Below, piece after piece: positions 2,729 to 56,633 of a stretch of 64,000 nt of DNA. How positions within the stretch are numbered: position 1 is the first letter of the stretch; every line of letters starts with the position of its first letter. Position numbers and translations under genes: made by a program. This DNA is from Eledone cirrhosa (lineage: Eukaryota). Below the pieces are notes generated by a model, which worked only from the letters and a program-made list of their open reading frames with translations, had not been told where the DNA came from and ran no database searches. The DNA lies in contig OZ024743.1 in NCBI GenBank assembly GCA_964016885.1, positions 256,804,001 through 256,868,000 of the forward strand, given 5' to 3'.

Positions 2729-2783
<55 letters not shown>

Positions 2784-2787
<4 letters not shown>

Positions 2788-3314
2788 ATTAGAATACTGG
2801 AGCGTGTTTGAGTCAAACACCCTCTTCGTATTATAGAAATGACAGTAAAAGGTATAGCTCAATGCAGTTAAACAGAGCCAAAAAATTAAGAGAGTAAAAC
2901 AAAGAATCCTTTAATACATCAAAAGTTTTTATTAGCCGACAATGTTTCGTCCTGTTAAGTACTCATCAGGGCAATAAAAACAACAAGAGGTAATATCGGC
3001 AGATACAAGCCAGAAACTCTGAAGAATATGGAGTGTACATACACTAATGTCTTACAAAGATATATGATAATAAAAATGAAAATAAAGATAAAAATAATCA
3101 AAATATATAATAAGAATAACTAAGGATGTAGATAACATTAAGAACCATATTACAAATATAGTCCAAAGCAACCAACTAAATCTAAACAAAATTGGTTATA
3201 TAGAGCAGGAATTATATATAACACAATATAATACATTATAATAGTAATATACTTTTACCAACATTAAAATTCCAAATTAAAAATTAAAAGGTACAATATA
3301 TACATGTATATATG

Positions 3315-3358
<44 letters not shown>

Positions 3359-4073
3359 ACAACACACATATCTATGTTCGACTACACAGAAATTAAGCCC
3401 TATTAGAAGTATGAATATTAAAAATAAGCATGGTAATAGTGAAAATAATACTAATACATCTACCCAATATACATGTGGCAATAATATGATATAATTACAA
3501 GAAACACATATAACAAATAATAAACAACAAAATTATATAATTCAATATAATATAATAAAATAGATAATCCCCGGTTAATTTACAGAAACAATATAGATGT
3601 CACAATGAAATACAATGATAAAATGTTAACAGTGTATTAACATGTACCATAAACAATATATACAAATTGATTCATACTGGGTTACAGAATAAATGAGGAA
3701 ATATAAATCATATAATACTCAAAAAAACTATAATGGTACAGGGAAAAATTATGATGTTACAGAAAAAAATATGATGTTACAGAAACAAATATACAGACAT
3801 CTAACATGATATGTAAAGTCTAAATATCATAATGTTACATATTACAATATTAAAAAAATCCAGACATCTTACATGATATATAAAGTTTAAATATCATAAT
3901 GTTACATATAATGAACAGTAAGTAATAAGGATCTATATTACATACAATATAATATAATATATTATAAAATTGGCATAAAATATATAAATACTTATAATTA
4001 CAAGGTTAGTAGACAGACATATGTGGATGAGTGAGCGAAGCCAGACAGTGAATAGTAAATAGAATAAAACAAA
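2784..4073 (-). repeat. Inverted copy of the PLE 3' UTR/pLTR
   Basis: Reverse complement of ~8470-9662 plus the 4820-4920 extension; gives the duplicated spurious ORF MPHVYWVDV on the minus strand. Confidence 0.92.
2935..2972 (-). ncRNA. Minimal hammerhead ribozyme (inverted pLTR copy; one stem II mismatch)
   Basis: Minus strand: gcc-CTGATGA-gtac ttaaca ggac-GAAA-cattg-TC-ggc. Confidence 0.8.
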
Positions 4074-4086
4074 AAGTTAACCGCTC

Positions 4087-4348
4087 TATCATTGTATTTC
4101 ATTGTGACATCTATATTGTTTCTGTAAATTAACCGGGGATTATCTATTTTATTATATTATATTGAATTATATAATTTTGTTGTTTATTATTTGTTATATG
4201 TGTTTCTTGTAATTATATCATATTATTGCCTCATGTTTATTGGGTAGATGTATTACTATTATTTTCACTATTACCATGCTTATTTTTAATATTCAAACTT
4301 CTAATAGGGCTTAATTTCTGTGTAGTCGAACATAGATATGTGTGTTGT

Positions 4349-4386
<38 letters not shown>

Positions 4387-4920
4387 CACATATATACATG
4401 TATATATTGTACCTTTTGATTTTTAATTTGGAATTTTAATGTTGGTAAAAGTATATTACTATTATAATGTATTATATTGTGTTATATATAATTCCTGCTC
4501 TATATAACCAATTTTGTTTAGATTTAGGCTGGTTGCTTTGGACTATATTTGTAATATGGTTCTTAATGTTATCTACATCCTTAGTTATTCTTATTATATA
4601 TTTTTATTATTTTTATCGTTATTTTCATTTTTATTATCACATATCTTTGTAAGACATTAGTGTATGTACACTCCATATTCTTCAGAGTTTCTGGCTTGTA
4701 TCTGCCGATATTACCTCTTGTTGTTTTGATTGCCCTGATGAGTCCTTAATAGGACGAAACATTGTCGGCTAATAAAAACTTTTGATGTATTAAAGGATTC
4801 TTTGTTTTACTCTCTTAGTTTTTTGGCTCTGTTTAACTGCATTGAGCTATACCTTTTACTGTCATTTCTATAATACGAAGAGGGTGTTTGACTCAAACAC
4901 GCTCCAGTATTCTAATCCTT
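4087..4920 (+). repeat. 5' pseudo-LTR of the PLE, with ~100-bp extension
   Basis: Near-identical to 8930-9662 up to ~4820. Confidence 0.9.
4732..4769 (+). ncRNA. Minimal type I hammerhead ribozyme (5' pLTR)
   Basis: gcc-CTGATGA-gtcc ttaata ggac-GAAA-c att g-TC-ggc; canonical core; GUC cleavage after 4766. Confidence 0.9.
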
Positions 4921-4996
4921 GTAACTGCTCCCGACAGGTTGAGCTTACTCACATATATACTGGTATTTGGGCCTCTATATATTTTTATCTGACAGT

Positions 4997-7690
4997 ATGC
5001 TAACAAAGAGTTACTTGCCTTTATCTCTGAAAAATATTCCCACCCCCTCTAAGAATACTTACCAAAAACTACTGATAGCTAGTGTTAACTCCTTTGTAAA
5101 AAGGATTAGATGGCGTGCGTTCCACTACGATAATAATAAGAATAGGAAGGACCCCAGGAATAGAACAAATTTTAATAACTACGGCTTCAAAACTTATAAG
5201 AGCCCACCACACAACATACTATTAGATAGTTTCGAAGGTGACTTACTCTCTCTGGTTAAAAATATTAGGTTTAGGCCAAATAATAGACATAGAAACAATA
5301 GTAATTTTGATAAATTCCAGTCCAGACTTAAAAATATTGTTAAGGGTTTCGGTGAGAATAAGTCCATTCTGGTCCCGGCAGATAAGACTAAGAATCTATA
5401 CTCCATGGACTATAGTACATACCGCGATTTTATTTATAAAGAGTTATATAGAAACTATAAAAAAACTACGCTTGAGAATTTGAACCACATCAATAGTGAG
5501 GGCCTTAGAATAGTCTCTGACCTCGGACTCGATAAGTATACCCAGCCATATTACCCTCGAGAACCGAGATTCACACTTAAGGACCATAAGGTTGATTTTA
5601 TTAGTAACCCCTCAGTTAGACTTATCTGTCCTTCTAAGTCGGATATAACCATTATCAGTAAAAAAATCCTTGACCTTATTATACCAGATGTTAGGGATAA
5701 GGTTAATTTTAACCTATGGGGGAACACTAGGGAAGTTATAGATTGGTTCTCTGGGATTAATAGACTTGAATCTAATAAGTTTATCCAATTCGATATTGAT
5801 GCCTACTACACATCAATTTCACCCATCCTCCTCAATAAAGCCTTAATGTTGGCCATGAGAGTGTCCAGCCTTACACGATCGCAGGTAGATATTATACTAG
5901 CAGCCCGTAAAACTATTATTAAATTTGAGGACACATATTGGACCCGTAAAAACACGCCCAATAATTTCGACGTTACAATGGGTTCGAGTGATTCGGCCCA
6001 GGTTACTGATCTTGTAGGGTTGTTCCTCCTTAATGAACTATACGCTACCTTCCCGCACCTTATAGGCGGACTATATCGTGATGATGCATTGTTTGTAATT
6101 AACTCTAGTACCAACAATGTAGAACTTAATAAGAGGAAGCTTTATAAGTTTTTTAAAAGCTACAACCTTTCAATCACGATAGATAGAAATGATAGAGCGG
6201 TTAACTTTTTAGATGTGACTTTGGACTTGGCCACTAATAGTTTTAAACCCTTCCATAAGCCTAATGAAATTCTTTCTTATGTTAGCCCCAATTCTAACCA
6301 CCCTAAGTCTATGATAAACTCTATAATTAAGGGCGTTTCTAATAGGATTTCCACACTATCTAAGGACATAGGAACTTTTAATGAACATGCGGAGTACTAC
6401 AATAATGCCCTAGCAAATTCAGGTCACACTAGTAAAATAAATTATAATAATAGTAACTTTAGAAAGTCTCCGCTTACTCTTAATAATAATAACATTATAT
6501 TACATAACATGGCCATGAATGGGAGTAGCAAACATAGTAACCGTAGAACTTATATAGGAGAATCTGAACCCACCCATATGTTATCCCACCGGACTCGTAA
6601 TAGCAAATATAATACCTCTAGGAGACAAGTCGAGCCCCCTGTGCGCTCACGCATTGGTGTTGGTTTGGCTGGATCTTATTCTAGAAATGTTGCTCCTACT
6701 GATCCTATCATTGGCCTTAATCCTCTTGTAGGGATTCCGGACAACAGCGGATCTACTGGAGGTAGAAACTATAATAGGCATAACGAAATTATGGCTGATT
6801 CTATGAATGTGGCTTCAACTATTCCCGATAGTAACCCTAGTCTCGACGGTGGGACATTTGATAGAGGTAGGGTCGATAAGAATAAAAATAAAAATAGAAG
6901 GCGATTAAATACTTATTTCAACCCGCCATATAATCAGGATGTATCAACTAATATCCCTAGGTCTTTCTTCACTATCTTAGAGAAAAATGTCCCCCCTTCT
7001 CACAAATACCATGGTATTTTTAATAAAAATGTTATTAAACTCTCATTCTCTACCACCCCTAATATTAGTTCTCATTTAGCTAGCACTAATAATAGGAAAA
7101 TTAGGGATGGATTCTCCTCTCTACATACTACTAGTCTGAATGCATCGGACAATGCTTTACCACCAGAACAGTCCTTATCTAATAGAGGTCCTACGTGTAA
7201 TACATCACCACTCGAGCCAACCAATAACACCCGGAAGTGCAATTGTAGAGTGAGTGCTAATTGCCCTCTAAACGGTAACTGCCTTTCTAAGAACATTGTC
7301 TACGCTTGCGAGGTTATAACTAATTCCTCTAAAAGAACGTATATAGGATCTACTTCAAACACTTTTAAGACTAGGTTTAACTCTCATATCTCCAACTTCA
7401 AACATGTTAGGTTTAAGAACTCTACCTCTCTAGCGCATTATATCTGGGATCTTAAGGGAGCTTATATACCATATAGCCTTAACTGGAGTTTAGTAGCACG
7501 ATCTAAACACCTTTCTGCACATAGTAAGTTTTGTAATCTCTGTATACTTGAGACACACTCTATTATTTTCTCTAGCGTACCCTTACTGAATAGAAAGTCT
7601 GAGATATTCTCTTCTTGCCCCCATACCATTTCTAATTCTTATTTTTATTATAAACCCAAATGTTCTAGTAGTACAAATTGTACCCATTAG
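4997..7690 (+). CDS. Penelope-like reverse transcriptase + GIY-YIG endonuclease (Naiad-like), uninterrupted
   Basis: ADKTKN, FIQFDIDAYYTSI, DVTMGSSDSAQV, LYRDD and NFLDVTL RT motifs; CNCRVSANCPLNGNC linker; IVY...YIG...R...H and CNLC...LNRKSE...CPH nuclease motifs. First ATG at 4997 (ORF track starts at TTG 4967). Confidence 0.93.
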   Translation: MLTKSYLPLSLKNIPTPSKNTYQKLLIASVNSFVKRIRWRAFHYDNNKNRKDPRNRTNFNNYGFKTYKSPPHNILLDSFEGDLLSLVKNIRFRPNNRHRNNSNFDKFQSRLKNIVKGFGENKSILVPADKTKNLYSMDYSTYRDFIYKELYRNYKKTTLENLNHINSEGLRIVSDLGLDKYTQPYYPREPRFTLKDHKVDFISNPSVRLICPSKSDITIISKKILDLIIPDVRDKVNFNLWGNTREVIDWFSGINRLESNKFIQFDIDAYYTSISPILLNKALMLAMRVSSLTRSQVDIILAARKTIIKFEDTYWTRKNTPNNFDVTMGSSDSAQVTDLVGLFLLNELYATFPHLIGGLYRDDALFVINSSTNNVELNKRKLYKFFKSYNLSITIDRNDRAVNFLDVTLDLATNSFKPFHKPNEILSYVSPNSNHPKSMINSIIKGVSNRISTLSKDIGTFNEHAEYYNNALANSGHTSKINYNNSNFRKSPLTLNNNNIILHNMAMNGSSKHSNRRTYIGESEPTHMLSHRTRNSKYNTSRRQVEPPVRSRIGVGLAGSYSRNVAPTDPIIGLNPLVGIPDNSGSTGGRNYNRHNEIMADSMNVASTIPDSNPSLDGGTFDRGRVDKNKNKNRRRLNTYFNPPYNQDVSTNIPRSFFTILEKNVPPSHKYHGIFNKNVIKLSFSTTPNISSHLASTNNRKIRDGFSSLHTTSLNASDNALPPEQSLSNRGPTCNTSPLEPTNNTRKCNCRVSANCPLNGNCLSKNIVYACEVITNSSKRTYIGSTSNTFKTRFNSHISNFKHVRFKNSTSLAHYIWDLKGAYIPYSLNWSLVARSKHLSAHSKFCNLCILETHSIIFSSVPLLNRKSEIFSSCPHTISNSYFYYKPKCSSSTNCTH

Positions 7691-8929
7691 CAGATATATT
7701 CCATTACTTAGTTTTTTGTTTGGGTTCTTTTGTTTGCCAACATTAATGATATCATTGGTTTTTGATGACTCTTCATTCTAGCTCTCATAATCATTTGGCT
7801 ACTGTACCATATCTATGTCTTCACTATTACACCTTGTTAGTATACATAAGATTACACACTTTACGCCACTTACGTTATTCTATTATTATCTTTATATTTT
7901 TTTATTATTATTAACTTTAATTTTAATTTTAATTTTATTTTTAATTCTATTTTTATTTCTAAGTCTATTCTGATTTATCTATCGACACCCCCCCCCCCCC
8001 ACATGCACACATAAACTTATTGTCAACCCCTCCAGACTGAATATGATTATATTTAACCCCCCCTCTTTTATGCTCCGTTCTATTATTTATTAGAGTATAT
8101 TGAATATATTTTATGCCACTTCGCACCCTCCATATATTTCGTCAATTCTGTCCCCATTAGCCTACCTTAACTCTACTTAAGTCAGTTTTTTAGATATCGT
8201 TGCGTATATGATAGTATAATTTTATTCCTTTTTGTAAACATTTGTAACGATACATTAAAGTTTATATACTTTAATGACTTAAACTACAGCTAATATTATA
8301 CTACCTTATTGGACGGGTTCGATATTTTTAATATTAATTTATCAAATAGGGTTTGGAGTCAATTAAAATGATTGCTTTCCTTGGTGTTTACCTAATTTCT
8401 TAAATGCACGCGAGGCCTAAATGTGTATACATTTGCTTTTGTTTTGTAATTTCCGGTTGATTGTATTTATTTGTTTTATTCTATATTCTATTTACTATTC
8501 ACTGTCTGGCTTCGCTCACTCATCCACATATGTCTGTCTACTAACCTTGTAATTATAAGTATTTATATATTTTATGCCTATTTTATAATATATTATATTA
8601 TATTGTATGTAATATAGATCCTTATTACTTACTGTTCATTATATGGAACATTATGATATTTAAACTTTATATATCATGTAAGATGTCTGGATTTTTTTAA
8701 TATTGTAATATGTAACATTATGATATTTAGACTTTACATATCATGTTAGATGTCTGTATATTTGTTTCTGTAACATCATATTTTTTTCTGTAACATCATA
8801 ATTTTTCCCTGTACCATTATAGTTTTTTTGAGTATTATATGATTTATATTTCCTCATTTATTCTGTAACCCAGTATGAATCAATTTGTATATATTGTTTA
8901 TGGTACATGTTAATACACTGTTAACATTT

Positions 8930-9191
8930 TATCATTGTATTTCATTGTGACATCTATATTGTTTCTGTAAATTAACCGGGGATTATCTATTTTATTATAT
9001 TATATTGAATTATATAATTTTGTTGTTTATTATTTGTTATATGTGTTTCTTGTAATTATATCATATTATTGCCTCATGTATATTGGGTAGATGTATTACT
9101 ATTATTTTCACTATTACCATGCTTATTTTTAATATTCAAACTTCTAATAGGGCTTAATTTCTGTGTAGTCGAACATAGATATGTGTGTTGT

Positions 9192-9227
<36 letters not shown>

Positions 9228-9662
9228 CACATATATACATGTATATATTGTACCTTTTGATTTTTAATTTGGAATTTTAATGTTGGTAAAAGTATATTAC
9301 TATTATAATGTATTATATTGTGTTATATATAATTCCTGCTCTATATAACCAATTTTGTTTAGATTTAGGCTGGTTGCTTTGGACTATATTTGTAATATGG
9401 TTCTTAATGTTATCTACATCCTTAGTTATTCTTATTATATATTTTTATTATTTTTATCGTTATTTTCATTTTTATTATCACATATCTTTGTAAGACATTA
9501 GTGTATGTACACTCCATATTCTTCAGAGTTTCTGGCTTGTATCTGCCGATATTACCTCTTGTTGTTTTGATTGCCCTGATGAGTCCTTAATAGGACGAAA
9601 CATTGTCGGCTAATAAAAACTTTTGATGTATTAAAGGATTCTTTGTTTTACTCTCTTAATTT
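8930..9662 (+). repeat. 3' pseudo-LTR of the PLE
   Basis: Direct repeat of 4087-4820, ending in (TA)n. Confidence 0.9.
9573..9610 (+). ncRNA. Minimal type I hammerhead ribozyme (3' pLTR)
   Basis: Identical to 4732-4769. Confidence 0.9.
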
Positions 9663-9744
9663 ATATATATATATATATATAAAATCAGTGTGAGAGATAA
9701 CTAAATTATGTTATCAGGACAGAGCGAAAAGAAAAAAAGTAAAC

Positions 9745-10407
9745 AAACAACATGGTAGTAATGCAACGTAAAGAGAGTCAAGTCAATGAATCTTGTGGGC
9801 TTAAGTCCGAACATATCAAATGACGAGAAGAGGCAGATATGTCCGAGCCACGCGAAAAGTGAGAGAGAAAAGAAATTCACACAGGTCAGACGGGAGAAAG
9901 TGAGAGAGGGGGAGTAGCAGAGAGTGAGTGAGTGAAAATGTGAGGAAGAGGCCAGGCAAGAGAGTGGGTGATAATCAGCAGACTACTGATGATGGACAGT
10001 CGTGTCTCGGTCTATTTTCATTCATATGTTCACATTTGCAACAACGCAGCACGCCATGTTTCATTCACACATATATTTTTTTCCCCTCGCTGTGGTTCGT
10101 ATTTTTTCTGTCACCTTACTGCTATACTCTTTCTCTATCCTTGTACCTCTTGCTTTCATTCCCCCTTCTGCTGGTCACCCACTCTCTCGCCTGGCCTCTT
10201 CCTCACATTTTCACTCACTCACTCTCTGCTACTCCCCATCACTCACGTCCTGCCGTCTGACCTGTGTGAAATTCTTTTCTCTCTCACTTTTCGCGTGGCT
10301 TGGATGTGTCTGCCTCTTCTCGTCATTTGATATGTTCGGACTTAAGCCCACAAGATTCATTGACTTGACTCTCTTTTCCTCTCTTTACGTTGCATTACTA
10401 CCATGTT

Positions 10408-10623: not shown

Positions 10624-10705
10624 TCACCCGGACAGTTTTGATAGTACTGTTTCGCAATATTATTTGTGAAGAGGAATAACAAAATCCTAGTTCATCAGCG
10701 GGTGA
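10624..10705 (-). ncRNA. Type I hammerhead ribozyme motif with full stems I and III
   Basis: Minus strand: tcacccg-CTGATGA-(long imperfect stem II)-GAAA-cagt actatcaaa actg-TC-cgggtga. Confidence 0.75.
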
Positions 10706-13144: not shown

Positions 13145-13290
13145 TTTTGAGTTTATGTTGGTTGTATACCAACACCTCAGTATGCAGGCTGGAGCACTCG
13201 ACGAAGTGCGCAGGTTGGTTTGGTTACTCCGGAGTAGTGTAAAATAAAGTTAAATAAAAGTCAAATGATTAAAATTTAGCTTCGTTTATT

Positions 13291-13345
13291 ACTGCTATAT
13301 ATATTTCAGTGACAGCCATCTTTGGCTGTGACCTCTTCAGGCAGT
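13291..13345 (-). ncRNA. Minimal hammerhead ribozyme
   Basis: Reverse complement of 13568-13622. Confidence 0.85.
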
Positions 13346-13567
13346 TTGAATTAGTATGGTATAGACAAGTACATATGTTGTTTAGGTGTATGATATTGTC
13401 AATACTCTGATATGCCCAGTTCCTTGTTGGGTTGTTAATTCACTGGGGAACTGGAGTCATATTCACCCAGTGAATTAACAACCCAACAAGGAACTGGGCA
13501 TATCAGAGTATTGACAATATCATACACCTAAACAACATATGTACTTGTCTATACCATACTAATTCAA

Positions 13568-13622
13568 ACTGCCTGAAGAGGTCACAGCCAAAGATGGCTG
13601 TCACTGAAATATATATAGCAGT
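13568..13622 (+). ncRNA. Minimal hammerhead ribozyme with palindromic stem III
   Basis: actgc-CTGAAGA-ggtcacagcca aaga tggctgtcact-GAAA-tatata-TA-gcagt. Confidence 0.85.
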
Positions 13623-13666
13623 AATAAACGAAGCTAAATTTTAATCATTTGACTTTTATTTAACTT

Positions 13667-13732
<66 letters not shown>

Positions 13733-15329: not shown

Positions 15330-17021
15330 AATACAGGAACGTTTTATGCAATTTATGTTTCCAAGCCGAAATTGCCTCAGATTTTTTGTTTAAGATGGTG
15401 TAGAGTATTTCCAGGGCCTCAGCAGCGCAGAGGTCACATGGTCTTTTTTTTTCGTTATACGATCTAGCCTCATCTACGATCTCCTATATTGGGTGTGGTT
15501 GTCTTTTAGACTCCAGATATAAGCTGAAAGTGACGTCATATTCCTTCTTAAAGGGTTAAGGAAACAATGGGTGTGCATGTAAAGACGCTGCGTGAATCTA
15601 CTGGCTGTTAACCCTATGTAGGCCCTACGGGACGTGGGTGTTTCAACCTTACATTTGTAGACAATGCTACTGGAGAGGCATTTCCCGGATAGGGGGCAGT
15701 CAACCCGATTCCTACAATTACAGTTAGTACTAGCTACAGGGTTGCACGTGTTCCTATGGCGAGGTAATTTAGCTAAATTTGTAGCAATGATGTTATGTGC
15801 AAGGTTAGGAGTCGTAGAGCAAAAACTTTTAATCGTATTTCTGTTGGGGAAAATGCTTCTTAATAATGGAGAGAAAGATCTTAGCTAATGGTGTGGCCAC
15901 CTCCATATTATATGGTGGGTTATACCATATAATGCGTCGGGATCTATTTTTCCTAGGTCTATGCTCATACTCACTATATGCTACCTTATCGACAAATTCA
16001 GTCCGAGCAATAGCTTCGTTGTAATATGTGGAATGGTGAGTGAAAATATGCTCGTTTGTAGATAGAGGGAAAGCCTCAAACAAACGTTTCTTACCAGGTT
16101 CGTTGTTATGCTGTCAGGATGATTAGAATGCTTACTTATGTAATTAAGCGTATCATTCGGCTTTCTATACGGGTGGTGCAGGCCATTCGACAAATTGAGG
16201 GTAACGTCGAGGTAATTAGTGATACATATATACACATACATACACACTAAATACATTCATGAAGGTATTTACATATATGTAAATAAATATATATGTATAG
16301 ACACAAACACACATATACATATAAAAGATATACCAGGAAATATATTTTTTGAATAAAAATTATATTAAAATTCATAAAAAATGATCTTGTGTTCTCTTGC
16401 TGCGGACGGGCTGAATATATGTTAGCATCTCACTGAAACCACTTTTTTATGCATGTTTGTTTATAACATTCGATATTAGGTCTCACCATGCAATTAGGGT
16501 TTGCCTCAACTTATCCATATCGTGCCAGTTACAGTTGAGGGACATGCCGCGTCCATCGTTTCTGTATAGTCCAAATTCAATGGCATGCCTTGGAGTTTGT
16601 TCTTTAATGTGTGTTACAGGTATGGATTGACAAGATCTGCCACCTCCACTCCGTCTAAATTGCCCATTGTGACATCGAAGAGTTCATCATCATGCTTCTT
16701 AAACTAGAAAGAGTCATTGTGGTACAGCAATGACTTCCTCACATTTAATATGTACGTCGTTGTTTGTTATGGTGGTGTAGTTTTTACCTAATTTCAGGAA
16801 CTGGAGGTGTAGTTCGAAAGAAATGGACGGGTAAAAATAGACAATGTCAAATTGTATAAATTTGCAGTTTTTGTTTGTCTATATGTCGTTGACACTTTTC
16901 ATAGTGGCATTGCTGCATTTCCATTGCTCGAAATTTGTAGATCTCCTGATGGTGGTGCTTATCCTGTGGAGAATTTTTTTGTTGACTTTTCCCATTTCAC
17001 ATTTCATGGAGCTGATTAGAT
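15330..17021 (-). pseudogene. Decayed Naiad-like PLE, 3' part (RT, thumb, GIY-YIG), interrupted by a microsatellite near 16220-16330
   Basis: NYLDVTLNLSNG...PYRKPND, RRIIWYNPPYN, LISSMKCEMGKVNKKIL, FDVTMG; stops and frameshifts. Confidence 0.85.
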
Positions 17022-17236
17022 CAGGCATGCGAAACATGCGGCTTGCGGACCACATGTGGCCGTTTACAAGCATAGCTGCGGCCCGCACTAGGGTTTTTAC
17101 AGCACGAAAATGTTTGATATTCGTAATATAAAATAAAAAATATTAGTTGTAATGTGTGCAATTATTGTCGTGTGGCCTCAAGACAACACATATGTGACCC
17201 ATGTAGAACTCGGGGATCTTCAGTTTCCCATGCCTC
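17022..17236 (+). mobile_element. Non-autonomous hAT MITE related to the element at 18995-21305
   Basis: Starts caggcatgcgaaa and ends tttcccatgcctc (degenerate right TIR); subterminal sequence matches both ends of the autonomous-type element. Confidence 0.85.
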
Positions 17237-17478
17237 ATCTAGACTATAATTTAACCTGTAATCCATGTTTCATTACTGTCGCACCTCATTTCTCCCCCCC
17301 CCTCTCTCTCTCTCTCTCGCTCTCGCTCTCTCTCTCTCTCTCTTTCTCATTCTCCCTGTGATATTTGAATCTACTATGATTTGGGCTTACCTTACTCATA
17401 CATATATGTTTTTGCATATCAGTTAGATTCAAACTTATAATGATTGGAATTATATATATATATATAGGAAAAAGTATG

Positions 17479-17575
17479 ACCCCGACGTCAGAGCTCAAGT
17501 GGTTTCGACGGCTATTTCTGCACTAAATTAGAATGTTTAGCCTGGTGAATAAATAGCCGAACTTTTCAAGGGGGT
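17479..17575 (-). ncRNA. Degenerate hammerhead motif
   Basis: Minus strand: acccc(c)-TTGAAAA-g..cggctattt...aaatagccg.c-GAAA-c...g-TC-ggggt. Confidence 0.45.
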
Positions 17576-17958
17576 ACTTCCTTATATGGGAAGATTGTAG
17601 TTGTCAAGAGGATTGGTTAAAATTTGTTGTAAACACAAATAAGTCTATCATGGCATTTGGTGGGAGGTAGGGGTGGCTGAACTTGCCTGCAAAACAATAG
17701 GGGAGTGAGTGGAGCGGTCAAGCGTTGAAAGTGAAATGTATACATCAGATTCTAGGGATAGTGTATGAAGTGGGGGAGGGAGGTTATAGAATAGGTAAAT
17801 CGAAACGTTTTCCTATTTCCCACTCTACTACCCTAAGTATTGAGTACTCTGGTGCGTTATGGTCTATTTGCTTCCTTACCACAATTCCTTTGTTATATAT
17901 ATAATTCCAATCATTATAAGTTTGAATCTAACTGATATGCAAAAACACATATATATCA

Positions 17959-17995
<37 letters not shown>

Positions 17996-18287
17996 TATAA
18001 CACATGTATATATCTTTGGGTGTATATATGTATATTTCTATAAATAATTCTGAAATAAGTCTACAATAATTTTTTCTAATTTAATAGCAAACCCTTAAAA
18101 GAAAAAAAAATGTAATAAGTATTTAAAATTTATCTAGCGTCTAAACTTAACGGCTCTTTTCAGTTTTAACGTTATCCTCATTGGCATATTTCTTTTGAGT
18201 GTTCAACGTCTCTATTCACTATTCTCACTGAACTTATAACATTACGTTAACATGAAGATATGTCACTATCTTAACACCAATTATTAT

Positions 18288-18346
18288 ATTTTATCTGACG
18301 AAAGCGTACTTAAATGTTAGTACCCTTGAAATGCGTATAATAAAAT
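18288..18346 (+). ncRNA. Minimal hammerhead ribozyme
   Basis: attttat-CTGACGA-aagcgtact taaatgtt agtaccctt-GAAA-tgcgta-TA-ataaaat. Confidence 0.85.
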
Positions 18347-18618
18347 AAATATGGTTTTATAAAGATACTTTCCATTTATTAATATTATTGATATATATAT
18401 ATATTCTTTTTTTTTTGTTAAAATAATTAAATTAAATTAATTCAACAGTTAAGCACACATAGGAATAATAAGGTTGTTACCGAAGAGCCAGAAGATTGAC
18501 AAGTCGACCCTAAATATGACTAATAGCTCTAGGAAATCCATGAACGCCACCAAAACATTTTAACTTTGATTTTGAAAGTAGATTTATAATTATTAATTTT
18601 CCCTATACATTTGTATCT

Positions 18619-18827
18619 GTCTCGGTGGCCTAGTTGGAGGACTCATAGATGGTGGTGATCCTGGTCTGAAGTTCGTTCCTGGTCAGGAGTAGGATTCCTG
18701 CTAGCTCTTTTTTTCTATGGGATGTAAAATAAAAACTGTAACATTTTACAAGCACCGCTTGACCAGGATTGGACCTAAGAACAGGATCTCCACCGTCTCT
18801 AGTACCTACCACTACGCCACTGAGACA
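18619..18827. other. Two inverted tRNA-like (Pol III A/B box) heads
   Basis: Plus 18619-18690: gtctcggTGGCCTAGTTGG...GTTCGTTCCtggtcag. Minus 18757-18827: gtctcagTGGCGTAGTGG...GGTCCAATCCtggtcaag. Confidence 0.5.
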
Positions 18828-18994
18828 TCTACGAAAGTCTATTGAGAATTCATACTTATAAACCTACTTTCAAAATTGTCAATACAAAATGATTTGGTGT
18901 CGTTCATGTCATTAATCCGACTTAAGGTCGACTTCTAAATCATTTGGCTGTTCCATAAACTACATCTTCGTTTTTTTTTCTCATCTATGTAGAC

Positions 18995-21305
18995 CAGGCA
19001 TGTCAAATACGCAGCCCTTTGAAAGCACACCTCCGCCTCGCACAAATGTTTTTACAGCGTGAGTACGTTTTATCTTCGTAATATAAAATGAAAAAATGTT
19101 CGATGCGATTGTTTTTATTTTTTGTGTGCGTTTTTTGTCAACTACTTTTAACTTCCGACGAATCATGTGCAACAGTTGTAAACAGAAAACTTTCTTTCAA
19201 GATTTCAAATGTTTTTTCTTTTAAAATTGCTAGTGCTCTTCCAGCTAAGAGAAAAAGGAAATTGAACGAAGAACGGAGAGTGTTTCAAGAAAAGTCGGAA
19301 TTACAGAATTTTTGCACAACAGTGAACGGAAAGATACACTGCTTAATTTGCCACAACTGCATCGCCACGCCAAAAGAGTACAATTTGAAAAGGTATTATG
19401 AAACGAACCATCGATCTTATAAATATGATGGCCCAATGCATGTTTCAAGACTCAAGGAATTGAGTTTTATGTAAATTCAGGAAGAGAATGTCGCTTCCGT
19501 TACTGCAAGCTATGAACTCAACCAAATGATCGCCATGAGTGGGAAATCTTACAGTAAAGCAATGCCTTGTAAAAACAGCTGAAATTGTATGTCCAGAGAA
19601 AAAACAGTTATTCAAAGTCATTTCATTAACCAGGAACACTGTTGCTGAACGGATTGATGAAACGTCAGGTGATCTGAAATAACAGTTGAAGGCTGTATCA
19701 TCAAGGTTTGAACATTTTTATTTTGCTATTGATGAGACCGTTGACATCACTGAAATAGCACAGCTTGCTTTCTTCATCAGGGCCTGTGACAGTGAATTTA
19801 ATATTTATGCAGAACCGATTGAACTGGTCCCATGCATGACACTACAGGACATCTTTGAGAAGGCCGAGCAGGTTCTGCATGACTATGGTTTTGATTTGAG
19901 TAAACGACAATGCTTATCTACTGACAGTGCTGCGAATATGGTTGGCAGATATAATGGTGTTACTGTCAAGTTACGAACAAAAATAGAAAACTCGCATCCA
20001 GATTCATCATTTGCACATTTTCACTGTATTTATTCATCAGCAAAATTTGTGTTCAAAGATTTTAAATTGCATCATGTGCTTAGCTTGGTCACAAAGACAG
20101 TGGACTATATCAGAGGCCATGCTCTCAACCGCCACCGGTTCAGCCAGTTGTTGGACGATATGGATAATCAGTTCACCGATGTTCCATTCCAAACAAAAGT
20201 CTGATGGTTGTCATGTCACAAAGTGCTGAAAAGATTCTATTTGTTGAGACAAGAAATAATTATGTTTTTGGAGATGAAAGGTCAAAACACAGATGAAATA
20301 AAAGATGAAAGTTGGCTCCAAGATCTGGCTTTTGCTCTGGATATTACTGTACAATTAACTGATCTTAATTTGAAATTACAAGGTAAAAACAAACTCATCA
20401 CTCAGTTGTATGATGACATCAAAGGCTTAATTAGAAAACTAAGCTTATGGAAGTCACAGTTGTGAAATGAAAATTTAGTTAATTTTCCTACGTGCATACA
20501 GCTGAAAAACACTGCCAATACTGATTATGTACTTAGCTTGCTAAGTATGACAGTCACCTCGAATTGTTATCAAAGCAATTTCAGGAAAGATTTTGTGATT
20601 TCTTATCTTTTGAACATCAGTTTGCATTATTCTCAACACCATTCACCTTTGATGTTGCCAGGTCAGAAGAAAGCCTTCAGATGGAACTATTAGAAATGCA
20701 GTCAGATTCTACACTCAGAGGAAAGTATCTTGAAGTGGGGATACCTGGTTTCTTTTCATACCTTGCTGAAAATGTTAAAACCTTCAGAACGTTTGCCACA
20801 AAGATTATGGCTATGTTTGGTTCTACCTATGAGTGGAAACAGTTATATTACTTCATGAAATTAACAAAAACTTCTCAGAGAACAAGGTTGTCTTGTCACC
20901 TCTGATCAAAGTCAGAACTGTACAGACATTTCAGCCAGACATACTAAAAAATGTCAACAAAAAGAGGTGTCAAGCCTCAGGACAAAACACTAAAAATGGT
21001 TGAATAGTAGCAAATAAATGTTCAGTTTTATTGTTGTAATTTGTTGTACAATGTATTTGTTGCTTTTGCAAGTTGCAAGTATATGTTACCATTTAAAACT
21101 TTAGTTTTTTGTCAAACCACTTCATTACATTGTATTCATGAACGCTTCTAAAACATTTGTATGTACATTGTATGTTCCGAAATTTAAGTAACAAATTTTT
21201 CTGCAAACATTTTATTAAATGACTTTAATTTGTTGTCTTGTGCGGCGCTCAGACAACACGTGTGACCCATGTGGCCCTTGAGGGATCCTCAGTTTGACAT
21301 GCCTG
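18995..21305 (+). mobile_element. hAT DNA transposon (Buster/Charlie/SPIN-like), full length, decayed
   Basis: 13-bp TIRs CAGGCATGTCAAA / TTTGACATGCCTG enclosing transposase fragments. Confidence 0.9.
19230..21003 (+). pseudogene. hAT transposase pseudogene (GTF2IRD2/SPIN-like)
   Basis: KRKL.EERRVFQ, BED-like CLIC...KEYNLKRYYETNH, FAIDETVD, TDSAANMVG, HCI, WLQDLAFALDI, AMFGSTY; multiple stops and frameshifts. Confidence 0.88.
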
Positions 21306-21850
21306 GATTAGACGACATTGTGAGTTTGCAGTAAAATTTTCTTTATGATCCTTCAGCAGGAGGTAGGGTTTTCGTGGTATGAGCCTCTAAATTCTTGCTG
21401 CTATTCCCTTGTGTAGCAAGCTTTTGTTTAATCTTTTACATCGTTGTACACCCTGCTTTTTTAGATATCCTTGATGTTACTGAACTGAACAGTAGTGGAT
21501 CATAGGATAGTTTATCTAATTCGTAGGTGTTCCTGGGTTTATCAACTAGTACGAATAGAGTACTTGACATTTTGGAAGGGAGTAGCTGCTCCTTGTTGTC
21601 TTGTTGGAACTTATTTGTGTATTTGTTAAATTTTACTTATTTAATTAGGTTCATTAGATCGGCTTAACACGGTAGCATAACCTTGTTGTAAGGGGGATTT
21701 TTTGTGAATTATATCCAAACATGTTCAGGAGGGAAGCAGGTGTATTTCTATTGGTGAAGTAGGCTTTCCATTTCATATGCTTGAGCGTCTTTTCAATGTG
21801 TCACTTGGTGTAGAAATCCTTAAGAGGGTTTGCAATGTTCTTTAACGAAT
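21306..21850 (-). pseudogene. 5' part of the decayed Naiad-like PLE, continuing 15330-17021
   Basis: Minus strand LKHMKWKAYF...LIPRKPYLLLKDHKENFTANSQCRLI joins SSMKCEMGKV at 17021, matching FTLKDHKVDFISNPSVRLICPSKSDI in the intact ORF. Confidence 0.85.
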
Positions 21851-22175
21851 GTACTCACAATTTCATCAATTGAAAGGTGAAAAATCCACTGGTCATCAAT
21901 TAATAATAAATTCATAACCAGCAAATTGCAGACAAGGGAATTCTCATCAGCCAGTAATTATATGAGGTATTTCCAAATATCAACCTTTCTACTGAATTTT
22001 CAGGTTGCTTCCAGTATCTCACGTGTATCATAAACTACTAGACAGTCAGCAAATGACAGCGGCAGGGATGGGCTGACTGGGATTGGCGGTAATGCTTGGT
22101 ATAGCAGAATAACTTCACCAAATATGGAACACTGGACCATAATTAAATAAAAACAAATTGTGAATTAATTATATA

Positions 22176-32254: not shown

Positions 32255-33243
32255 AGGTGTGTATATATATATGTATGTGTAATCTATCTATATATGTGCA
32301 CATGTGTGTATATATACACATTTATGTATTTATATATTTATGCGTATATATAATAATAATGATAATAATGAAAGTATTGTGTACATATGTGTGAGTGCGT
32401 ATCTTTTTTATAGTTAAACTTAAATCATATACTTTCATTGATTGCTTGCAAATATTAAAATAATACATATTATTTTTAATTTTCATTTCATTTAAATTTA
32501 AAATCATTACATATTTTCTTTGATTATTATAGTTTTATAAAAACAAAAAAGCAACCCTAATATAAATAATAAACTCTATTTCATCAAAATATTCAGTTGA
32601 AACTATTTTATTCCATTATTACTAATATTATTATTATTATTTAGTTGTGATATTAGATTTCTAAATGCTTGTATTCATCGTGAGGAATGCTTTAGATTAT
32701 ACACAAAGCAGTTATGGAAAAAATGTAAATTTTCTTTTTCTTAAGGAATATTTTACCAAATATATGTTTCATTTGATTTCTTATTCATTTTTCGTATTCA
32801 TCATAATATTTTCTCTATTTTATTTTATTCAAATTTTGAATTTTGAATCACTCTACCCCACCCAAATCTAAATGCATTGTTGAATGCTGTTTCTCTGTAA
32901 ATCTGAATTCTGTTATTAAAACAAATGCATAGTTTGCATGATATTCTTGCTTGTATTTGTTAATTTTACTGGGTTTTCTGGTGCTATATCTTGGTGTTTT
33001 TTCTGAATTTATTGTGATATGAGAACACAATTTTTTTTTACTATTTAGTAAGGGCGGTAAAGGCAGCACCCATGGCCAATGACCATTAAAACAAAGGTAG
33101 CCGTTTATGGCACTGACCACAGAATGACACATTACTGTACCCTAAAGTCTCACAGCTTTAAAAAAATGTGTGTATCCTATATACAGAGCCAGCATCACTC
33201 TTAAGGTCAACTAAGGCAATCACCTTGGATACAGACCTTGGAG

Positions 33244-33429
33244 AAGGCATGTCAAACTGAGGGTCCTCGAGGGCCGCATGGGTCACATATGTGTTGTTTG
33301 AGGGCCACACACGACAACTAATTGTGCACATTACAACAGATTTTACAAAGATAAAATATTCTTGCGCTGTAAAAACCTTTGTGCGGACCGCAGGTGTGCT
33401 TCTATAGGGCCGCATGTTTGGCATGCCTA
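33244..33429 (-). mobile_element. hAT MITE, same family as 17022-17236
   Basis: aggcatgtcaaa...tttggcatgcct ends; decayed 8-bp TSD ccttggag/cattagag. Confidence 0.85.
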
Positions 33430-41628: not shown

Positions 41629-44600
41629 ATGTCTAATGATAAAATCTCATACCGGATCGGCCGTCACCCGGGTAAAAAAGGGCCGCGTCCCTCAGAGAGG
41701 AACCAGACTGGGGTCGAAAAATCAGCTAATGGTTCAAACCTTCCCATCACTTCGGAGCTGGAGACCTCCCATAACCGGAATACTCCTACTGTTGGCCCTC
41801 CATGCTCACCACCAAGAAATCCAAAGAAAAAGAGAGAAAAATGGTCAAGGGAAGATAATAAAGAAGTCCTTGAGGCTTTCTACACTGCCATGTACTACCC
41901 ATCAAATACATCGAATACAGAACAGACATATATCAACTGGAAAAAGAAACATCCCGAAAACAGAGGCTATATTGACAGTAACAAACTAGCCAATATACGA
42001 AGAAATATTGTAAGAAAAAAGTTACTAACTGATATAGAAATTGATCAGATCAAGCTATTAGCACAAAGTCAGCGAAGGGAAAATGAAACATGTGTCAGTG
42101 AAAACGAGGTAAACTGTAACACTTCGAATCCCAGGGTTGGGGCGGAATCACTGGCAACAGAACAAATTAAAGAAAGGAGCGAAAAAGTGGAGGGAGTGCA
42201 TGCTCAGGATGAAACTCCAAATGAAAATAATGAGATCGTAAATGATAAAGAAATGAATGAGAATGAACTTGCCAACTTGAAGGATGAAATTATGATCGAA
42301 TGGATGAAAATGAAAGAATCTGACATGGGGCAACGAGACACCCTCCCTAAGATCCAGAACTCCAAACAGAACCAAAAGATAATACACAAGACTAACATAA
42401 TTCTCAAAAACATTATCATCACAAACAAACTAAACATTACTGATTTAAATCATCTCTATTATGCATCGGCTAAAGTCACCACTCACTTATGTGGAGTGAA
42501 GATGAAAAAACAAAGGAATTCCCACAAGAAATCTACTTGGCAAGAGAACATCAATCGCCAAATAAACCTTCTCCGATCTGACATAGAAATTTTAACAAAC
42601 TATAAAGTAGGTGAAAATGTTAAACAAACTAAACTTAGAAAATTGAAAAAAAAGTACAGTATAAAATCAACATGTGACATAGACATGCTGATAGAAATAA
42701 TCAAGCAAAAAGTGTCGGCCAAAGCTGCTCGTATAAGGCGCTTTGAAAAACGATCTAGATTCTATAAGGACAATAATATGTTCAAAAACAACCAAAGTAA
42801 CTTCTACAGAAAAATTGGTAAGTCAACAATAACTGCTAAATCAATACCACCCAAGGAGGAAGTGCAAGAATTCTGGGAAAAGATCTGGGCCGAAGAAAAA
42901 GTTCATAACATACATGCCCCATGGATAGACAGACAAATGAAAGATACAGCTCACCTTGAGGAACAAACATGGGAAAATATAACAGTTGAACAGTTGCGCT
43001 TGGCTCTAAGAAAAACCAGCAAATGGAAATCCCAAGGAAAAGACAAAATACAAAACTTTTGGATAAATGCCTTCACAGAGTCTCATGAGCTGTTAGCCCA
43101 ACTTTACAATGAAATAGTTAAGGAGCCAGAAAAGATACCTTCATGGCTAGTTAACGGCATTACATTCCTGCTTCCGAAGAATGATGAGACAAACAATCCC
43201 AAAAATTACAGACCGATAACTTGCTTGACCACAATGTATAAAATTTTAACATCAGTCCTAACTGAATACACATATGACCACCTGATAACAAATGACCTAT
43301 TTCCCATTGAGCAGAAAGGGTGTAAACGAGGCTCATATGGCTGTAAGGATCAGCTTCTGGTTAACAAAATGATACTGGAAGATTGTCATAATAGGCACAA
43401 AAATCTATCGATTGCTTGGATAGATTATAAAAAAAGCATTTGATAGTTTGCCACACAGTTGGATTGAAAAATGTTTAGAGATTTTCAAAGTATCCCCCGT
43501 TGTCAGGAGGTTTTTGTCATTTAGTATGAAGACATGGAAAACGACACTCCTTTTGAATAGTGAAACAAAATCACTGGAAGCTGGAGAAGTTAATATTAAT
43601 TGTGGAATTTTTCAGGGTGACTCTTTATCACCGCTTTTATTCTGCATCGCACTTATACCATTAAGTAAAATGCTCAATGAAACAAAACATGGATATAAAG
43701 TCTATGACAAAACCATTAATCACCTGTTCTACATGGATGACCTGAAACTATTTGCAAAAAATGATGAACAATTGCAAGGGCTATTATCCACTGTGAAGCA
43801 GTTCAGTGATGACATTAAAATGGAGTTTGGACTAGATAAATGCGCCAAAGCAACGTTCACCAGAGGAAAGCTGCTGAAGATTTCAGACATTAATCTTGAT
43901 CGGGGGAATGTGATAAGAGAACTTGATCAAGAAAAAACTTACAAATATCTAGGTCTTTGTGAAGGAGACGGAATCAAACACTCGACAATGAGGGAAAGGA
44001 TAAGGAAGGAATGTTACCGCAGAGTAAGAGCAATCTTAAGAACGGAATTGAATGCAAGGAATAGGATCGATGCCATAAACACGCTTGCCATACCAGTAGT
44101 AACCTACAGTTACAATGTCATCAAATGGTCAAGCACAGAGATCCGTAGGCTCGATACAAAAATTCGAAAATTCTTAACAATGCACAGAATGCATCACCCT
44201 AAGGCAGATATAGATAGAATATATCTCCCTAGGAAAGAAGGAGGACGTGGGTTAATCCAGTTAGACATTGCGTTGAAAACTGCAACAATTGGATTATCTA
44301 CATATCTAAGGGAATCACATGATTGGATGATCAAACTCGTTTTGAAACACGAAAGCATCAAAAGATCATATTCCATTACAAAAGATGCACAAAGATACAG
44401 TAATGGACTACACATTTCAGAAGTCCCATTTACTGCTGAAATGGAAAACACAGAAAAAGCAAAGCAGGTAAAAGTAACTGCAAAGAAAGAACTGCTACAG
44501 AAACTGGCTAAGAAATGGCAAGAAAAGCCTCTGTATGGAAAATACCCAGAGCGAGCTAACAATCCTGATGTTGACAAAACTTTAACCCATCAGTGGTTGG

Positions 44601-45280
44601 CATCCTCTGGACTGAAATTGGAGACTGAAGGACTGATTATATCGGCACAAGATCAGTGTCTGCCAACAAAAAATTACCAAGCCAACATAATAAAAAATGG
44701 GTGCAGCCCATTATGCCGTGTATGCAAAAAACAACCAGAGACCATTGACCATATAATTTCAATGTGCAGTCCTATAGCTCCAACCGAATACCTAAACAGG
44801 CATGACAGAGCTGCACAATACATACATTGGATAATGTGTAAGCATTTTGACCTGCCCCATCAAAAGAATTGGTGGGAGCATCAACCACCTCCCATACTTG
44901 AAAAAGATCACATCTCAATCTTGTGGAACTTTAGCATCCAAACAGACCGAAAAATAGATGCAAACAGACCTGATATAATATTGAAAGACTTTCAAAAGAG
45001 GGTATGCCTGCCAATTGATATGTCTGTTCCAATAGACAAGAATGTATCTATAAAAACATTTGAAAAATTGAGCAAGTATAAGGACCTGGAGATAGAAATT
45101 GGAAAAATGTGGAAATTGAGAACTAAAACAATACCAGTGGTTGTAGGCGCTCTGGGAATGATACCTAAGGGGTCTAATGATTACATATCGCAAATCCCAG
45201 GAAACCCGCGTATAGGAGAAATACAAAAGATAGTACTAATGGGAACTGCCCATATACTAAGGAAGATTCTGTCAATATAA
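41629..45280 (+). pseudogene. R4/Dong-like non-LTR retrotransposon family A ORF (Myb-like, RT, CCHC, RLE) with a single 1-nt insertion frameshift
   Basis: KWSREDN Myb-like N-terminus, NYRPITCL, WIDYKK/AFDS split by one extra A at ~43429-43435, GIFQGDSLSP, YMDD, CRVC...H...C, RHD, NRPDI...D...K. Confidence 0.9.
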
Positions 45281-52671: not shown

Positions 52672-53240
52672 TCGCATCACCGCCACCACTGCCTCGGTAT
52701 CGACATCACCGCCACCACTGTCTCAGTATCGCCAACGCCGCTAGTCTCTGCTGGCTACCACTTCCACATTATAGAATTCCTACTACTAACAAAGAGGAAG
52801 GCATCAAAATATATAGATAGACTCAAAAGAAAAAAGAAAAAACAAACAACAAAAGCAGCACAGCAACAACAGTAAAAAACGAGAAAAACAGAGAAAAACA
52901 AAAACAAAAAAAGAAACCCCAAAAACGTAAAGAAAATAAGAATGAAGAGAGAAGCAGGCGGACGGACAGAGAAGAGGGGGGAAAAAGTAAAACTTAAAAA
53001 ACAAAAACTAAGTCAGACATTCGAATACTACATTACAATGAAACTTATGCTTATTCATTTTTGGGGCCCTTTCTGCCCGTGTGTTTGTTTGTTTATGTGT
53101 GTCCGTATACAGCGTGGTGATAATGCCACACAAGGGCCAAGTGGGATGGCGGATCCACAGATGGCTATGTAAACATACATTCGCCAATCCTCGATAAGAG
53201 TGTTTAAATATCGAACATAAACAGTTCGAATAACGGTGAA

Positions 53241-56200: not shown

Positions 56201-56633
56201 TCTACCACATTCTGAGAAATGGTATGAGCATAGGCCAGAGGCGGTGATGGAGAACAGTCAGGTGAAGGTGCTGTGGGATTTTAGGATACAGACGGACAAA
56301 AAACTGGAACACAATAGACCTGACCTGGTGGTTGTGGACAAAGAAAAAAGATCGTGCCTGATTGTGGATGTGGCCTGCCCGTTCGACACGAGAGTGCAAG
56401 AGAAGGAGAGGGAGAAAATTAACCGATACCAGGACCTAAAGTGGGAGGTGAAAAGGATTTGGAACTGCCATGAAGTCAAAGTGATCCCGATTGTCATAGG
56501 CGCACTGGGGACTATCTCCAAAGGTTTCCAGGGATGGTTAAAGAAAATCGGCCCCTTCACGCTTTTTGGAACGCTTCAAAAGGCATGCTTGCTTGGAACG
56601 GCAAGAACCCTCCGATACGTCCTGAATATCTGA
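53241..56633 (+). CDS. R4/Dong-like retrotransposon protein (Myb-like, RT, CCHC zinc knuckle, restriction-like endonuclease), 1130 aa, uninterrupted
   Basis: TNWTKELN Myb-like, WKSPGPDG, NYRPITCL, WIDYRKAFDMV, GIFQGDSLSP, FMDD, CRIC...H...C, RHD, NRPDL...D...EK..RY. Confidence 0.94.
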   Translation: METRTSCDRLSPNRCPLAQQQEPDCQRNTADVGGRRRRKGARTNWTKELNRTVMQCYLKSNPKERGYRRRMHNIWNEIGLFKLDEQKLAGQARVIRTNGWISELELEELSRENGLEMAGVVCQTSEPAGNEGEEVLRAEEPPEADNDLNTEINNTWNRDTATEEMNADGLGQDSVDILNLVVDELNNNSGRPMNLRFVDRKKLKETTAKVNKVIPYLEARSLHQCNNILKATANTVRKLLGIKARGNNRQERAEPWWKKRLSGQIGEMRNDIGKLESLLNGTLKNIGTKNRLEIKYKTRSKKLNIIIEELKQRIVAKSAKIRRYENRVSQYKQNRMFDNNQKMLFGQLEGKERGTDLIPGAEQAKTFWRGIWEQGVRHNAQAGWIETVQREIGEQAQQQTDLSITVETLKGQAKKLTNWKSPGPDGVQGYWIKHLTSLHPKLTAMFNDCLVSGEVPEWLTKGTTVLIMKDRIKGNDVTNYRPITCLPVMWKLLTSIVSEEIYHHLHTNNLLPDEQKGCRKKSRGTKYQLLIDKMVMGNCRRRHTDLAMGWIDYRKAFDMVPHSWITKSLEIFRVADNIRQLLGRSMGSWETELTSTGVSLGSVKIKRGIFQGDSLSPLLFVLALMPLTIMLRKVRAGYKLGRGELTINHLLFMDDLKLFGKSEKELDVLVDTVRIFSSDICMQFGIGKCGVIVMRRGRLSRSNGIQIPTGEMIKEIDSEEGYKYLGVLEADGIKNKKMKELLRTEYIRRVRSVLKSHLNSRNAISAVNSRAVSIIRYSAGILRWNVAEQKEMDRKTRKLLTIYNMFHKRSDVDRLYLRRSEGGRGLISIEDCIQMEKNNLYKYVTYSKEPMLRAVLKEGTVGQGIPKEEITSRRKSSLKGKSLHSTFFEKTEFRDPQTWNWLRRGDLKKATEGMLMAAQEQALKTKWLKHHIYKEEASPLCRICGEREETVAHIVSECKHLAQTHYKGWRHDVMGRVIHWHLCKVNNLPHSEKWYEHRPEAVMENSQVKVLWDFRIQTDKKLEHNRPDLVVVDKEKRSCLIVDVACPFDTRVQEKEREKINRYQDLKWEVKRIWNCHEVKVIPIVIGALGTISKGFQGWLKKIGPFTLFGTLQKACLLGTARTLRYVLNI

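Follow-up and report, generated by a model that had tools for sequence, protein, structure and literature searches.

A probable naturally amplified hAT macrotransposon of Buster/SPIN type in Eledone cirrhosa

A composite block in a Penelope-like reverse transcriptase gene

We analyzed a 64,000-nucleotide stretch of the Eledone cirrhosa genome (GenBank assembly GCA_964016885.1, contig OZ024743.1, positions 256,804,001 to 256,868,000 of the forward strand; hereinafter the window), in which a block of about 4.3 kb (17022-21305) lies inside the decayed reverse transcriptase (RT) gene of a Penelope-like element (PLE). The block begins with a miniature inverted-repeat transposable element (MITE) and ends with a full-length hAT element, and encloses a cargo that includes the two parts of a repeat we call X (Table 1). 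A preliminary description, made from the letters alone, had read it as a composite hAT transposon; both outer 8-mers, the inner flanks, the MITE, the transposase element and the damaged inner terminal inverted repeat (TIR) of the MITE are all present as it had given them.

In silico removal of the block restores a single minus-strand RT frame. A search with the upstream half of the PLE as query recovered 17 other loci in 15 distinct places, and eight distinct PLE places span the insertion point, every one with a single 8-mer that is identical to the right copy in five of the eight. The two halves belong to one element rather than to different subfamilies, their identity to other copies being similar on both sides (75-82% on the left, 79-89% on the right). 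Because random target-site pairs of this hAT family agree at 7 or more of 8 positions in 42 of 2964 comparisons, the outer duplication gattagat/gattagac is beyond chance. Both outer junctions are bridged by contigs of the sequencing runs X3 and X4, the sample of which is possibly the assembly's own (16300-17149 and 21249-21630); among the joints shown from sequencing-run contigs none skips the block, with 118 further joints outside view. In runs X1 and X2 (organism A) the transposase is covered and repeat X and the inner junction are not, a missing cover that does not amount to absence. The insertion and its duplication are thus real.

Table 1. Features of the block and of its insertion site in window coordinates
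Feature	Position	Strand	Remark
PLE RT gene, downstream half	16388-17021	-	decayed; insertion target; frame carries on past the removed block and aligns with other PLE copies across the site
Left target-site duplication	17014-17021	+	gattagat
hAT MITE, left module	17022-17236	+	215 bp; outer left end and inner right end; composite-type haplotype of single-nucleotide polymorphisms (SNPs)
Inner 8-mer	17237-17244	+	atctagac; permuted target duplication in X, family-wide
X 3′ part	17237-17466	+	comes after the 8-mer where X is uninterrupted; (TA)n at its end
Later insertion at the (TA)n joint	17467-17884	.	high-copy repeat; 3′ half of a hammerhead-like motif (- strand, ~17480-17510)
Inverted duplication of the end of the X 3′ part	17885-17956	-	93% over 73 nt
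Second later insertion	17999-18390	+	high-copy repeat with (TA)n runs on either side
Minimal type I hammerhead motif	18287-18347	+
X 5′ part	18391-18994	+
Inner 8-mer	18987-18994	+	atgtagac (family form atctagac)
Full-length Buster/SPIN-type hAT element	18995-21305	+	inner left end, decayed transposase, outer right end
Right target-site duplication	21306-21313	+	gattagac
PLE RT gene, upstream half	21306-21852	-	decayed

A dispersed composite family and its transposase

The layout of the block, namely MITE, atctagac, X 3′ part, X 5′ part, atctagac and transposase element, recurs in the genome, with each of the two inner junction types found in about 40 places. We examined 69 loci (numbered with the prefix L). 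Of these, 18 carry the left module and, further on, a right end; another 16 have just the left module, and in 35 no left module is intact. In the 18 two-ended copies the outer 8-mers match at a mean of 6.83 of 8 positions, and at 7 or more in 11 of them, as against a mean of 3.88 and a maximum of 4.78 in 10,000 shuffles; perfect pairs include those of L071, L149, L155, L156 and L167 and, by annotation, L182 and L184. The inner flanks are atctagac-like at 31 MITE-to-X and 32 X-to-left-end junctions. The block is accordingly no one-off event at this locus, as had been proposed, but a member of a dispersed family with locus-specific outer duplications; the parts of the preliminary description that hold are that it moved as a unit between the left end of the MITE and the right end of the transposase element, and the circular permutation of its cargo. 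Compact copies measure 3.26-3.38 kb. A 21-base junction pattern returned 16 exact matches (12 in the 40-locus set, three composite remnants and one solo MITE), from which 40 × 15/12 gives roughly 50 composites as a rough lower bound; a first estimate from the fraction of 'CA' matches at the X junction was rejected as too high, four of the nine such matches not being composites. Individual copies vary: L177 is a composite with an inverted left module and outer 8-mers matching at 7/8, a possible case of alternative end use, and in L181 a 22-bp subterminal unit of the left end is expanded into a small tandem array, as a unit of the right end is in L169 and L184.

Ordinary solo elements with duplications of their own also occur. 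The list holds 21 solo MITEs, 16 of them, L043 apart, with duplications matching at 6/8 or better, and three solo full elements (L070, L073 and L076) have duplications matching at 7/8. Among the best 40 transposase matches, composites are at least as common as solo full elements. The window itself has a solo 186-bp MITE of the same family on the minus strand (33243-33428; duplication 6/8), and a region at 20.0-23.9 Mb of G000:C25 (L049-L065) holds at least 17 solo full elements with identical flank and 8-mer, that is, one insertion multiplied by segmental or tandem duplication.

All three parts of the composite carry alleles that are scarce outside it. In the MITE these are A at left alignment column 87 (25/31 composite versus 3/20 solo copies) and T at right column 96 (24/31 versus 2/20); in the X 3′ part, C at column 44 (31/37 composite versus 2/39 standalone copies); and in the transposase an A (25/28 composite versus 1/7 solo), a first T (27/28 versus 3/8), a second T (27/29 versus 2/8) and a G (24/28 versus 2/6). 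The transposase tree is star-like, with copies 4.7% from the family majority. Private alleles in MITE, X and transposase together with this tree point to one founder and a burst; the composite family was thus likely founded once and then spread by its outer ends. Superimposed on this are tracts of shared rare SNPs, for which the background is 1.1 ± 1.4 across all 861 transposase pairs: the window copy and L067, 2.4 Mb apart, have 11 in common over transposase positions 119-1241, and L067 and L068 have nine over 1405-1961. A solo and a composite copy on C2, L070 and L157, 1.3 Mb apart, have 20 in common. Such tracts between neighbors, both in the C2 pair and among the window copy, L067 and L068 within 4 Mb on C4, reflect either local hopping or conversion.

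About 12 composites contain two or more X units, joined by precise or nearly precise junctions. These extra units are not nested standalone X, a possibility that we rejected on their composite type (C at column 44 in 12/13). The two units share eight rare SNPs in L184 and again in L080, against 0.5 ± 0.8, and two in L067. Either the founder had three units and collapse in most copies was followed by conversion, or cutting at the reversed inner ends and rejoining produced the extra units. Locus-by-locus regeneration of the X junction was considered, but gene conversion between neighboring X units explains the shared SNPs equally well, and L067 has just the two.

The preliminary description had the transposase skip a defective inner end. 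The inner right TIR is indeed damaged in the window copy, but the damaged form occurs in 1/31 copies, while the last ten bases are the family sequence in 17/31 and the others have scattered private changes; the damage is private decay. The exact inner right TIR sequence is found in 8 of 21 solo MITEs, so the inner end of the family is no worse than a working end, and the unit therefore spread despite intact inner ends. An 18-bp length variant of the left end, tried as a hybrid marker, was rejected, since 11-bp direct repeats flank it and none of the four groups lacks it.

The duplications, ends and transposase place the family in the Buster/SPIN branch of hAT. The target duplication follows nnnTAnnn, with T at position 4 and A at position 5 in 100 of 104 strand-counts from 52 sites, and in family copies a 14-bp TIR was scored at each of the four ends. 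A 521-residue frame in L066 (1387-2949, minus strand; P0001) has 380 homologs at E ≤ 1e-20 with GTF2IRD2-like and SPIN-DOC-like names; its Pfam matches to PF05699 (E 0.0023) and PF18658 (E 0.00026) are both below the curated cut-offs. Homologs and motif alignment together give the features of Buster elements, namely a DDE transposase, the hAT C-terminal region and a SPIN-type zinc finger. In the window the element has the composite-type transposase haplotype, and its gene is broken by several indels, frameshifts and deletions among them; the majority sequence of the composites has an open frame of 520 amino acids with the D, D and E motifs. P0001 shares 81-83% identity with Trichuris suis proteins over 58-66% of its own length, versus 68% with an Octopus sinensis protein, a likeness that may hint at horizontal transfer.

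Taken together, we consider it very probable that the block is a decayed member of a dispersed composite hAT family, which likely formed once and spread by cut-and-paste at its outer ends. Several points weigh against this reading. Two of the 18 two-ended copies match at just 5/8 in their outer 8-mers, and the right end of L067 belongs to a separate MITE copy. No copy was seen intact or shown to move; that the family had a working transposase of its own is something we infer from the composite majority, whose open frame yielded neither the RW motif nor the N-terminal zinc finger. The loci were chosen by best BLAST score, which biases the SNP contrasts and the copy estimate to well-kept copies. 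Lastly, among 33 MITEs adjoining X there was no single insertion with X on both sides, so that the precursor is unseen.

Repeat X, the cargo and the origin of the founder

Repeat X is about 830 bp long and has sharp ends at (TA)n; neither a TIR nor an open reading frame by which to assign a superfamily was detected in it. It is often arranged in tandem arrays. In its other copies the 5′ part continues directly into the 3′ part via one atctagac. Because uninterrupted X reads through this single 8-mer, the inner flanks of the composite are an old, now permuted target duplication in X, and the permutation of the cargo at the inner 8-mer is circular, the arrangement that had been set against a colinear donor. 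A 19-base pattern of the X junction gave 471 exact matches, of which 89 of the first 100 are empty, and the empty-junction pattern of uninterrupted X gave 282; standalone X presumably amounts to about 1,000 copies. The atctagac site has been hit by other hAT elements: nine 'CA' matches stand among the first 100 of the 471 junctions, and three of these are other hATs (L238, L240 and L241), of which two lie in opposite orientations and show the complete duplication, the third showing just its left junction. The site is thus a hAT hot spot. L238 and L240 belong to one hAT family (86-88% alike), with internal 40-bp tandem repeats and 31% protein identity to P0001.

X is found in further contexts. 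A satellite with a period of about 1,685 bp (G000:C1:441188378-441228206) holds the empty X junction, with 20 exact matches. A second, TA-flanked TIR element, about 1.4 kb long when alone (L248, L250), carries one to three X units inside (L211, L244, L252, L232, L242, L248 and L250), an extra left end often preceding X. Repeat X has therefore been captured by two unrelated TIR families.

What remains of the cargo (17467-18390) is made up of two more high-copy repeats and the inverted copy of the X end. In compact composites it is missing and the two X parts are joined across a short (TA)n; because such copies lack it, we regard this stretch of about 0.9 kb as later, Penelope-type insertions. 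The first insertion, absent from the compact copies L071, L146, L167 and L178, would likewise be of Penelope type, and the second has 40 other matches at 85-90% among 1083 candidates. Every cargo part thus matches a high-copy repeat, and the foreign DNA from a donor locus that had been proposed is neither needed nor found.

The cargo had also been said to hold two hammerheads and tRNA-like heads. Minimal type I hammerheads of PLEs have a CUGANGA and GAAA core, stems I and II, and a short palindromic stem III. One such motif stands, at 18287: missed by a strict pattern, it was found by a relaxed scan and a family check, with the core in 23/29 family copies and stems I and II that fold, though the palindromic stem III of other hammerhead copies is broken here at 18333. 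The other is merely a 3′ half, the core occurring in 0/56 copies. Similarly, A/B-box-like motifs are present in two inverted arms of about 200 bp in the X 5′ part (18482-18685 and 18760-18953), but ARAGORN found no tRNA, and a comparison of the cargo with Rfam gave no match at the gathering score and no tRNA or hammerhead family at E ≤ 10.

For the founder, the account that we favor, giving it even weight for and against, starts from two hits in a tandem X array. X would have been a preferred hAT target, such that a MITE inserted in one unit and a full element in the following unit; transposase would then have paired the two outer ends, carrying the X 3′ part and the X 5′ part between them, and the unit would have spread by cut-and-paste at these ends. 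After inserting into the Penelope RT gene, the window copy would have traded sequence with a neighboring copy; two Penelope-type repeats would have entered it at the (TA)n joint within, and decay would have brought it to its 4.7% distance from the transposase majority. A single hit at the site would suffice if X and the inserted hAT were duplicated in tandem, the first element was replaced by a MITE through gap repair, and the outer ends then transposed the whole. Template exchange of this kind is seen in the mosaic copies (the shared tracts of the window copy, L067 and L068), a family-type MITE stands in second position in L159 and L162, and T at right column 94 is common at both composite right ends (21/31 and 21/28) and rare in solos (3/20 and 0/7). 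However, neither a copy with two full elements around X nor a precursor of a single X with its element was seen, and the proven hot spot makes two hits not far-fetched; we hold this origin to be possible but doubtful. If an X circle that bore one hAT had integrated into a MITE or full element already in place, a single step would account both for the permutation and for the inner 8-mers being identical, and the sharp (TA)n ends of X without a TIR make a circular intermediate conceivable. At the present locus, where it had been offered as the alternative, such an event is ruled out, the inner 8-mers being common to the whole family. As the origin of the founder it is unlikely: the first module is MITE-type (left column 45; right columns 49, 80 and 87) and the second full-element-type (left column 45; right columns 49 and 87) with no reciprocal hybrid pattern, any crossover is confined to the first 44 or last ~25 bases, and no X circle was observed, while tandem X arrays yield the same joint.

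That the unit is instead modular, with four ends of which the inner ones also work, so that solo MITEs were released, X was rejoined at the 8-mer and duplicated inside copies, and the standalone X repeat was possibly seeded from it, is in our judgment improbable. It is consistent with the solo MITEs L012 and L025, each with three composite MITE alleles and duplications of its own, with the rare SNPs common to the two X units of L184 and of L080, and with an X tree in which the composite type lies near the base, and would mean that a hAT macrotransposon gave birth to a second, TA-targeting repeat family. The birth of X from the composite is weakened, however, by empty-junction X, of whose first 100 exact matches 94 show the standalone allele, by the existence of standalone X copies that have the composite allele at position 510 of the X 5′ part, by L242-L244, which mix alleles with ambiguous polarity, and by the many X copies that ride in another TIR element. 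The damaged inner TIR and the real outer duplication are what a one-off transposition of foreign DNA past a defective end has in its favor; with the layout recurring under different outer duplications, the inner TIR intact in the family and the cargo all high-copy repeat, we regard it as refuted. Two independent neighboring hAT insertions matching by target preference, or an assembly join, are likewise refuted: the shared nnnTAnnn core does raise chance matches, but these seldom reach the agreement seen here, the empty site has a single 8-mer, contigs bridge both outer junctions, and the layout is that of the family.

The window has other features of note. At 2781-9981 lies a PLE with long inverted repeats and a frame of 915 residues (4943-7690); its hammerhead motifs are at 2969 (-), 4735 (+) and 9576 (+), and a less strict match is at 10698 (-). 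The two arms of an inverted repeat at 13240-13673 match perfectly over 208 bp around a loop of 18 bases. The stretch 40466-62450 holds long RT-like frames (41629-45280, 53208-56633 and 58489-61734) in (AAT)n runs with tandem copies of their 3′ ends, which resemble microsatellite-targeting non-LTR elements.

Comparison with known systems

In bacterial compound transposons of the Tn10 type two complete elements flank a cargo, and the outer ends move the whole while each element can also move alone. The present unit is unlike these in its eukaryotic hAT chemistry, its unequal flanking elements in direct orientation, and its selfish-repeat cargo without known benefit. In the open literature we found no naturally amplified four-ended hAT family described, a weak negative in that Repbase, Dfam and most subscription journals were outside the search; the accessible text of an octopus repeat study mentions no such family either, though its supplementary repeat library might list one (PMC13282606).

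Among animal TIR elements, the available text on Pack-TIRs gives multicopy cases as rare (four, or 1.4%, with few copies, such as Pack-hAT-N8_XT and Ssk-FB4; PMC8277862). Like these, the present family is a TIR element with captured internal DNA that re-transposed with distinct duplications; unlike the Pack-TIRs described there, which have two ends and host-gene cargo, it has four ends, repeat cargo and a transposase gene (PMC8277862). Having considered it as a Pack-TIR, we rejected that assignment on its four ends and its cargo made up entirely of high-copy repeat. The tandem dimers of hobo and P, as far as the portion of the source available to us describes them, arise by double insertion at a preferred site; here too target preference would set two elements at equivalent sites, and the inner junction retains the target 8-mer (10.1101/158386). 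However, in hobo and P the same site is hit and the dimers expand as satellites, whereas here two repeat units about 830 bp apart are involved and the pair is dispersed as a unit (10.1101/158386). With the Buster-family elements TcBuster and SPIN, for which the consulted part of PMC3499496 gives an nnnTAnnn consensus of the 8-bp duplication, it shares that consensus, short TIRs and a DDE transposase with a SPIN-type zinc finger, the difference being the four-ended architecture, since its transposase is in itself unremarkable.

In maize Ac/Ds, according to the available text of PMC9910405, the outer ends of two linked elements move the intervening DNA with an 8-bp duplication, and the family resembles these macrotransposons in its use of outer ends, its 8-bp duplication and the reversed inner ends inside. 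As in Ac/Ds-type macrotransposons, one duplication surrounds the outer ends, and each flanking element also moves alone. The maize cases described there are single alleles in one or two copies, whereas ours has dispersed to about 50 copies as a family marked by a SNP haplotype of its own; unlike them it also includes a gene for transposase and, between the copies of an old target duplication, a permuted repeat (PMC9910405). We accordingly regard it as a naturally amplified hAT macrotransposon of Buster/SPIN type. The family includes no host gene and implies no new chemistry, and every copy that we saw is decayed. Its interest lies in a countable fossil record of end choice (outer, inner and reversed), and in a repeat shown to hitch-hike on two unrelated TIR families; in repeat libraries, such a unit would end up as three separate families. 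hAT macrotransposition is known mainly from single maize alleles, and here a unit with four ends, the inner ones intact, gave rise to a family.

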